A DNA stretch of 64,000 bases from the NCBI RefSeq assembly GCF_988243305.1, contig NZ_OZ547136.1; one strand, 5' to 3'. Made by a program: the position numbers and the translations under genes. Under the pieces are notes generated by a model, which worked only from the letters and a program-made list of their open reading frames with translations, searched no databases and had not been told where the DNA came from. Shown here in pieces: positions 17,480 to 17,673 of the stretch. Each line of letters starts with the position of its first letter. Position 1 is the first letter of the stretch.

Positions 17480-17673
17480 CCTACCGGGCCATGAATCACC
17501 CGGTCATTGGAGTAGTAACCAAAGCAGATTTAGCCAGCATGGAACAAATATCTTTGGTGAAAAGTTGGTTACGGGAAGCTGGAGCGCACAACGTGTTAGT
17601 AACCAGTGCAGTTAATAACAATGGAGTTACAGAACTTTTTGCCTTGCTGCATACAGAAGAAGGCTGTTGTTAA
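17480..17673 (+). pseudogene. PduV/EutP-family GTPase C-terminal remnant (yoeF-like)
   Basis: Translation ...HPVIGVVTKADLASMEQISLVKSWLREAGAHNVLVTSAVNNNGVTELFALL resembles the C-terminus of PduV/EutP; the N-terminal P-loop region is absent. Confidence 0.45.

Follow-up and report, generated by a model that had tools for sequence, protein, structure and literature searches.

At the right end of a CP4-44-type island, in the 64,000-nt stretch of DNA analyzed here (contig NZ_OZ547136.1 of assembly GCF_988243305.1, hereafter the window), a short reading frame resembles the end of a PduV/EutP-family GTPase. This raises the question of whether the fragment belongs to the island or to the chromosome beside it, and of what kind of boundary lies between the two. 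The initial annotation had placed a C-terminal piece of such a protein directly between yeeW and yeeX (tmaR), and suggested that it may be either a mark of the island–chromosome junction or a decayed cargo gene of the island.

Results and Discussion

Identity and Limits of the Fragment

The translation of 17482–17670 matched the Pfam profile PF10662 (PduV-EutP) with E = 2e-13 and 50.8 bits against a cut-off of 21, the match being restricted to profile positions ~87–142 of 143. The NCBIfam model TIGR02528 (EutP/PduV) was matched over positions 86–141 of 142 (42.3 bits, E = 8.5e-11), a score that lies below the full-length cut-off of 138 because just the last 56 positions match. In a BLASTP comparison with E. 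coli Z30 PduV, which is intact at 147 aa, 56 of 60 residues were identical (93%, E = 5e-39), with residues 58–117 of the 118-aa open reading frame (ORF) in the window aligned to residues 87–146 of Z30 PduV. At the nucleotide level, homology to intact pduV begins at 17491 and continues, at ~96.5% identity, across the intergenic region into tmaR. The proposal that the C-terminal ~60 residues of a PduV/EutP protein are present here was thus confirmed by both the profile match and the 93% amino acid identity to Z30 PduV; of the extent first assigned to them, 17480–17673, the end stands, and the start has to be moved 11 nt to the right. The features of the locus are collected in Table 1.

Table 1. 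Features at the right edge of the island, in window coordinates.
Feature	Position	Strand	Content or basis
DUF957 C-terminal fragment	16886..17002	+	ORF limits; DNA homology to intact gene from ~16920
IS110-family element left end	17090..17260	+	first 26 transposase codons at 17161–17241; cut by IS66 fragment
IS66-family right-end fragment	17261..17419	-	C-terminal ~40 codons of tnpC and element end
118-aa chimeric ORF (long "YoeF" frame)	17317..17673	+	ORF list
DUF4942 fragment (island's last gene)	17420..17490	+	~nt 113–183, codons ~38–61, in frame with pduV remnant
ATGAA microhomology at deletion joint	17491..17495		four-way alignment; right island–chromosome boundary
pduV 3′ remnant (K-12 yoeF)	17491..17673	+	pduV nt 262–444, i.e., codons 88–147 and stop
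Perfect 13-bp inverted repeat, pduV–tmaR spacer	17732..17760 (approx.)		CAATGAGGGTTGC-CGG-GCAACCCTCATTG; coordinates read from sequence
tmaR (yeeX)	17774..18103	-	nearest intact gene on the chromosome side; convergent with pduV remnant

The remnant retains just the G4 (TKAD) and G5 (TSA) regions of the GTPase fold, and so does not amount to a complete PduV/EutP domain of ~140–160 aa with a P-loop (GxxxxGKT) and a DTPG switch II. Nor does it form part of a microcompartment operon, pdu or eut, as no pdu genes lie beside it in the window; its full-length Z30 orthologue, by contrast, closes a complete pduA-V operon.

The same DNA is present in E. coli K-12 MG1655, which is 100% identical over window 17000–18200 and where RefSeq annotates yoeF as a 60-aa EutP/PduV family microcompartment system protein (WP_001016348.1) whose start ATG corresponds to window 17491. 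The K-12 neighbors, namely yeeW, a DUF957 fragment, a transposase fragment and tmaR, match those in the window. The two strains show no difference within the locus and differ elsewhere, in an IS621-type element in yeeA and in the left part of the island. The remnant is the ordinary, long-annotated yoeF pseudogene and as such is already known. A literature search for an explicit account of yoeF as a relic of the pdu operon gave gene lists only.

The pdu Operon at Its Native Position

Across 5426 complete E. coli genomes, a pduV match of any length was found in 5409, and full-length pduV (Z30 query, at least 80% of its length) in 645 of the 5426; most of the matches that were not full-length begin at pduV nt 262, the very breakpoint seen in the window. 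At the three full-length loci that we inspected, pduV terminates the pdu operon at this site and is convergent with tmaR. The order in Z30 is tmaR, pduV-U-T-S-Q-P-O-N-M-L-K-J-H-G-E-D-C-B-A, pduF, pocR, a cobalamin riboswitch and cobUST, with yeeA, sbmC and dacD beyond tmaR, and the pduV–tmaR spacer is the same as that of the window.

Outside E. coli, synteny was assessed by a degenerate-pattern scan of one genome per species. The arrangement pduU-pduV-tmaR-yeeA was recovered in E. albertii and in the representatives of two more Escherichia species. At the loci with enough flanking sequence in Citrobacter, a Raoultella metagenome-assembled genome (MAG) and Pseudocitrobacter, pduV and tmaR are separated by ~2.2–2.5 kb, and in C. 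werkmanii this interval encodes a propionate kinase, PduW, and a second kinase, of the GHMP family, that is compatible with PduX. In Escherichia, pduV is the last gene of the operon and tmaR is ~100 bp away. In Salmonella, too, pduW and pduX follow pduV, and the Escherichia lineage appears to have lost these two genes before the presence/absence polymorphism of pdu arose. Since the synteny is shared by E. coli, other Escherichia and Citrobacter, the pdu operon beside tmaR represents the native arrangement, and the native position of pdu in Escherichia is between cobU and tmaR. By its identity to pduV and the synteny that it shares with pduV of pdu-positive relatives, the remnant is classed as an orthologue of pduV rather than of eutP.

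At the other end of the operon, pdu-positive E. coli retain pocR, the cobalamin riboswitch and cobUST (Z30 locus coordinates 17637–18600), and the sole ORF between the riboswitch and cobU in Z30 encodes a 145-aa hypothetical protein. In Salmonella, cbiA to cbiP stand where Z30 has this ORF. At the matching place in K-12 (locus 5659–5802), a fragment is annotated as "cobalamin biosynthesis protein, missing N-terminus."

The Joint Between Island and Chromosome

To the left of the remnant, the sequence belongs to the island. An alignment of four sequences (the 5′ end of an intact DUF4942 gene, the fusion in strain ARB0346, the window and Z30 pduV) placed the crossover inside ATGAA, a pentanucleotide carried by both parents (DUF4942, ...GGGCCATGAAACAGG; pduV, ...CGTCAATGAATCGCC), with the last island-derived base at ~17490 and the first pduV base at ~17491. 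The 5′ piece of DUF4942 is joined in frame to pduV nt 262, the frame being preserved because the Met codon is common to both parents. The remnant does mark the island–chromosome junction, as had been suggested, and the joint at 17490/17491 lies in these 5 bp. Rather than an integrase att site, this boundary is a joint made by a secondary deletion, with both breakpoints inside genes (DUF4942 of the island and pduV of the chromosome). The original end of the island is gone, namely the rest of DUF4942 together with the att region or tRNA-proximal end. A 136-bp query spanning the joint was covered to at least 80% in 4170 of the 5426 complete E. coli genomes; most of the species is explained by this single ancestral joint.

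The assignment of the left-hand partner to DUF4942 rests on genomes in which more of it survives. The sequence at 17420–17490 is also present in ARB0346 and TK3888, where it extends ~110 bp further left to an ATG, and this longer sequence shares 74–82% DNA identity with DUF4942 5′ ends at other loci. Residues 1–64 of the 121-aa ORF of the ARB0346 type are 60% identical (E = 7e-19) to the N-terminus of a 280-aa DUF4942 protein encoded in a sister island of O157:H7, where its gene follows cbtA, DUF5983 and DUF957 and directly precedes tRNA-Ser. CP4-type islands that carry yeeV/cbtA, such as that of O157:H7, have the same order of cbtA, DUF5983 (yeeW), DUF957 and DUF4942 as the island here, with the difference that only codons ~38–61 of the DUF4942 gene survive in the window.

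Two other origins had been considered for this stretch. One was that the upstream sequence in ARB0346 is a decayed, frameshifted pduV N-terminus, given a P-loop-like string ("GTWQTGAT") and an "NLY" match picked out by eye; this was ruled out, as the frame gave no Pfam PduV/EutP signal at E ≤ 10 and the region is the DUF4942 5′ end read in another frame. In the window, no frame of the DUF4942- and IS66-derived sequence upstream of 17491 matches PF10662. The other candidate, that 17420–17490 is the right end of an IS110-family element, was rejected by means of a second copy of the element in WS0115A, which matches only up to locus position 5869; the start codon of DUF4942, at 5889, lies ~20 bp beyond.

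In TK3888, a complete IS66-family element, ISCro1 (tnpA, tnpB and tnpC; locus 5840–8540), is inserted exactly at the DUF4942′::′pduV joint, with a 9-bp repeat on its flanks that corresponds to window 17489–17497; this insertion and the IS66 fragment of the window arose independently. Two more left breakpoints fall inside the remnant, at positions 75 and 89 of the joint-spanning query (window-equivalent ~17499 and ~17513), which suggests additional independent rearrangements at the site. DEAD/DEAH-box helicase and TonB-dependent receptor genes are annotated beside or under the matches with these breakpoints.

Debris to the Left of the Joint

The claim that the remnant lies "directly" between yeeW and yeeX did not hold, as ~600 bp of other debris parts yeeW (16682–16876) from it. 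Window 16602–17260 is collinear with TK3888; the shared stretch takes in cbtA, yeeW, the DUF957 fragment and ~170 bp from the start of an IS110-family element. The DUF957 fragment is followed by the DUF957–DUF4942 spacer, which reaches 17089, and 16920–17089 as a whole matches DUF957 and its spacer in the O157 serX island at 84% nucleotide identity; in the identical stretch of K-12, RefSeq lists a "DUF957 domain-containing protein, missing N-terminus," and the 38-aa peptide of the fragment alone had no Pfam match. Homology to the O157 island, which there runs from DUF957 to the DUF4942 start, ends at 17089, and the IS110-family element is therefore placed just upstream of the DUF4942 start. 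Its left end is collinear with TK3888 (locus 3780–4450) at 95% identity, into an annotated IS110-family transposase pseudogene.

The IS66-family fragment that follows is truncated internally at 17419/17420. Its minus-strand translation matches Pfam PF13817 (DDE_Tnp_IS66_C) with E = 1e-15, and exactly this span gives 92–99% nucleotide matches to the tnpC ends of IS66/ISEc23 on many plasmids. The 118-aa ORF runs through three of these pieces, with residues 1–34 read antisense through IS66 tnpC, residues 35–58 from DUF4942 and residues 59–118 from PduV. The yeeW frame comprises the N-terminal domain only (64 aa, Pfam DUF5983_N), compared with 163 aa in the O157:H7 sister island; as yeeW and DUF957 are both fragments, erosion has affected the island's right end as a whole.

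Genomes Without the Island and the Question of Cargo

The comparison with empty sites that the initial annotation had proposed proved informative. In the island-less genomes LR1, EC16 and Sx181-0-1, a pduV tail adjoins cobU-side sequence and is followed by the downstream intergenic hairpin and tmaR. In LR1 and EC16, cobU and ~190 bp of upstream sequence are joined straight to pduV nt 268, which relative to Z30 is a deletion of 17.66 kb (Z30 locus 753–18413) with a 6–7-bp overlap; in Sx181-0-1, the deletion measures 17.25 kb (Z30 locus 875–18126), with a 5-bp overlap, and the tail starts from pduV nt 146. A published gene table for Shiga toxin-producing E. coli O156/O182 likewise gives the order yeeA, a hypothetical gene, yoeF and cobU (PMC5359238). 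Because the pduV tail is kept without the island, and because it is the 3′ end of intact pduV, the remnant lies on the chromosome side of the boundary.

That the remnant was instead cargo of the CP4-44-type island, having arrived with it and then been truncated in place, we regard as extremely unlikely, and the decayed-cargo reading first offered must be given up. The remnant does abut island-derived DNA, and yoeF is grouped with the CP4-44 prophage genes in the y-ome paper (PMC11551758); yet the same tail sits next to cobU in the three genomes with no island at the site, and it corresponds exactly to the 3′ end of intact pduV, the gene with which the chromosomal pdu operon ends here, in E. 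coli and in E. albertii, as well as in Citrobacter and relatives with pduW and pduX interposed. The one O157:H7 sister island examined, moreover, runs from DUF957 through DUF4942 to the tRNA without any PduV-like gene.

Function and Constraint

In Z30 PduV, the P-loop (GPSQCGKT, residues 8–15) and DTPG (residues 42–45) both lie upstream of the codon-88 breakpoint. A passage in PMC4315436, citing Parsons et al., reports that the N-terminal 42 residues mediate the association of PduV with the microcompartment and with PduU. Intact PduV, a Ras-like GTPase and the last gene product of the Escherichia pdu operon, resembles the remnant in sequence and in the convergence of its gene with tmaR, and differs in that the remnant holds residues 88–147 alone, the P-loop, DTPG and N-terminal 42 residues having gone. 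We judged the remnant non-functional because the P-loop and switch regions are missing; with no P-loop, switch I/II, N-terminal targeting region or microcompartment left, it is predicted to be a dead relic.

The spacer downstream holds an inverted repeat that, on either strand, forms the main stem of the predicted structure (z = -3.9 and -3.4) and that is invariant in the window, ARB0346, Z30 and LR1. The hairpin failed the consensus scan for intrinsic terminators because it has no T-run, and it is probably a 3′ stem-loop shared by two convergent genes. The second of these, tmaR, was identified from the ORF list and from the RefSeq annotation of the identical K-12 DNA; its 109-aa product is conserved beside pduV in Escherichia and beside pduX in Citrobacter and relatives.

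Might the tail of pduV have been retained for some use, either as a micro-protein (60 aa, or chimeric with 118 or 121 aa) or as a shield for the convergent 3′ end of tmaR and its stem-loop? Several observations favor this. None of the three or more breakpoints (pduV nt 146, 262 and 268, with two others likely) reaches the hairpin or tmaR; the hairpin is both strongly predicted and unchanging; and the 60-codon frame is open in most of the alleles examined, namely the window, K-12, ARB0346 and TK3888. The open frame and its RefSeq annotation as a protein rather than a pseudogene mean that a small or chimeric protein could therefore still be expressed. Against this, the G1–G3 motifs of the GTPase are absent along with the N-terminal targeting region, the start of the ORF varies among alleles, and LR1 has a stop codon at the position of the second codon of the 60-aa ORF in other alleles. 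Among six alleles compared over 60 codons, non-synonymous differences were at least as frequent as synonymous ones, with only 4–10 differences per pair and so no statistical weight (4 vs. 2 for the window and Z30, 7 vs. 3 for the window and LR1, counts too small for a formal test), and of the seven SNPs reported for yoeF in a published comparison, five are amino acid changes (PMC5359238). In a consensus scan of 16900–18300, the number of sites did not exceed that in shuffled sequence and no promoter-like site fell beside the ORF, and no Rfam family was matched in 16500–20800 at E ≤ 1. Protection of tmaR, for which the shared stem-loop could be the reason, accounts for where deletions cannot end on the right but not for why 177–299 nt of pduV persist, and it implies no function for the pduV codons; a single shared ancestral joint explains 77% of genomes without selection. 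Retention for use is, on balance, very improbable.

A Proposed History of pdu Loss

Taken together, the remnant is very probably a dead relic of pduV at a site where a CP4-44-type island stands in place of pdu and where the right edge of the island is a deletion joint. In the lineage of the window, in K-12 and in about three quarters of sequenced E. coli, the CP4-44-type island would have replaced pocR-pduF-pduA...pduV′. The right edge would have formed by illegitimate recombination at ATGAA, between DUF4942 codon ~63 and pduV codon 88, an event in which the remainder of DUF4942 would have been lost, along with the natural end of the island and all sequence as far as pduV nt 261, and which would have left an in-frame DUF4942(1-62)::PduV(88-147) fusion ORF by chance. 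An IS110-family insertion upstream of DUF4942 would have come later, followed in the K-12/window branch by the insertion of an IS66-family element into the IS110 element. A subsequent deletion, from inside tnpC to DUF4942 nt ~112, would then have taken most of both elements and produced the present patchwork with its 118-aa ORF. The K-12/window form is, as far as the compared sequences indicate, derived from an ARB0346-like form.

The order of the larger events may have been either of two, with the island arriving first and pdu being deleted afterwards, or with pdu lost first and the island following. The three deleted intervals are nested, that of Sx181-0-1 within the K-12 type and the K-12 type within that of LR1: in Z30 coordinates, the cobU-side ends are 18127, 18296 and 18413, and the pduV-side ends 874, 758 and 752, respectively. 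Given this nesting, the LR1 type could have arisen from the K-12 type by a further deletion; the Sx181-0-1 type cannot derive from the K-12 type because it has kept more of pduV. A predicted precursor, carrying the island with an intact DUF4942 and the pdu operon in one genome, was not found among the genomes examined.

The remnant itself is of little importance, and its value lies in the precise right boundary that it gives to the CP4-44-type island: the joint shared by 4170 genomes serves as an exact marker of this boundary and identifies it as a deletion joint rather than an att site. A correction in the bookkeeping of yoeF also follows, as this gene is listed among the CP4-44 prophage genes yet is a relic of the chromosomal pdu operon. 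More broadly, at a single E. coli locus, the disappearance of the pdu microcompartment operon has left no fewer than three different scars, a point that bears on work on how pdu is gained and lost in the AIEC and ST372 lineages.

Other Observations in the Window

In the first 7 kb of the window, only 5956–7000 matches K-12 and nothing matches Z30. The cobU-side junction of the island therefore lies outside the window. The stretch 1–5955 has no counterpart in the CP4-44 of K-12 or in Z30; it includes a gene for a 517-aa DUF3987 protein (2922–4475, minus strand) and ORFs at 958–1317 and 1851–2600 that had no Pfam match. Homology to K-12 resumes at 5956 with a yeeP-like GTPase and Ag43.

One database match came from outside the Enterobacteriaceae by label: positions 1–405 of JADFIX010000334.1, a 5.5-kb contig of a MAG named "Planctomycetota bacterium," are 100% identical to window 17449–17853, covering part of the DUF4942 fragment, the pduV remnant, the spacer and tmaR sequence. 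This is most likely E. coli DNA binned in a Planctomycetota MAG, through contamination or a chimeric contig.

To the right of tmaR, yeeA is interrupted by an IS110-family element at 18784–20059, with a 326-aa transposase ORF at 18888–19868 on the minus strand. LR1 carries the same insertion in yeeA, annotated by RefSeq as IS621 family, and matches the window at 99.3% over 2.7 kb including the element. In K-12, yeeA is uninterrupted; its target sequence matches both sides of the insertion, with 3 bp common to the two matches.
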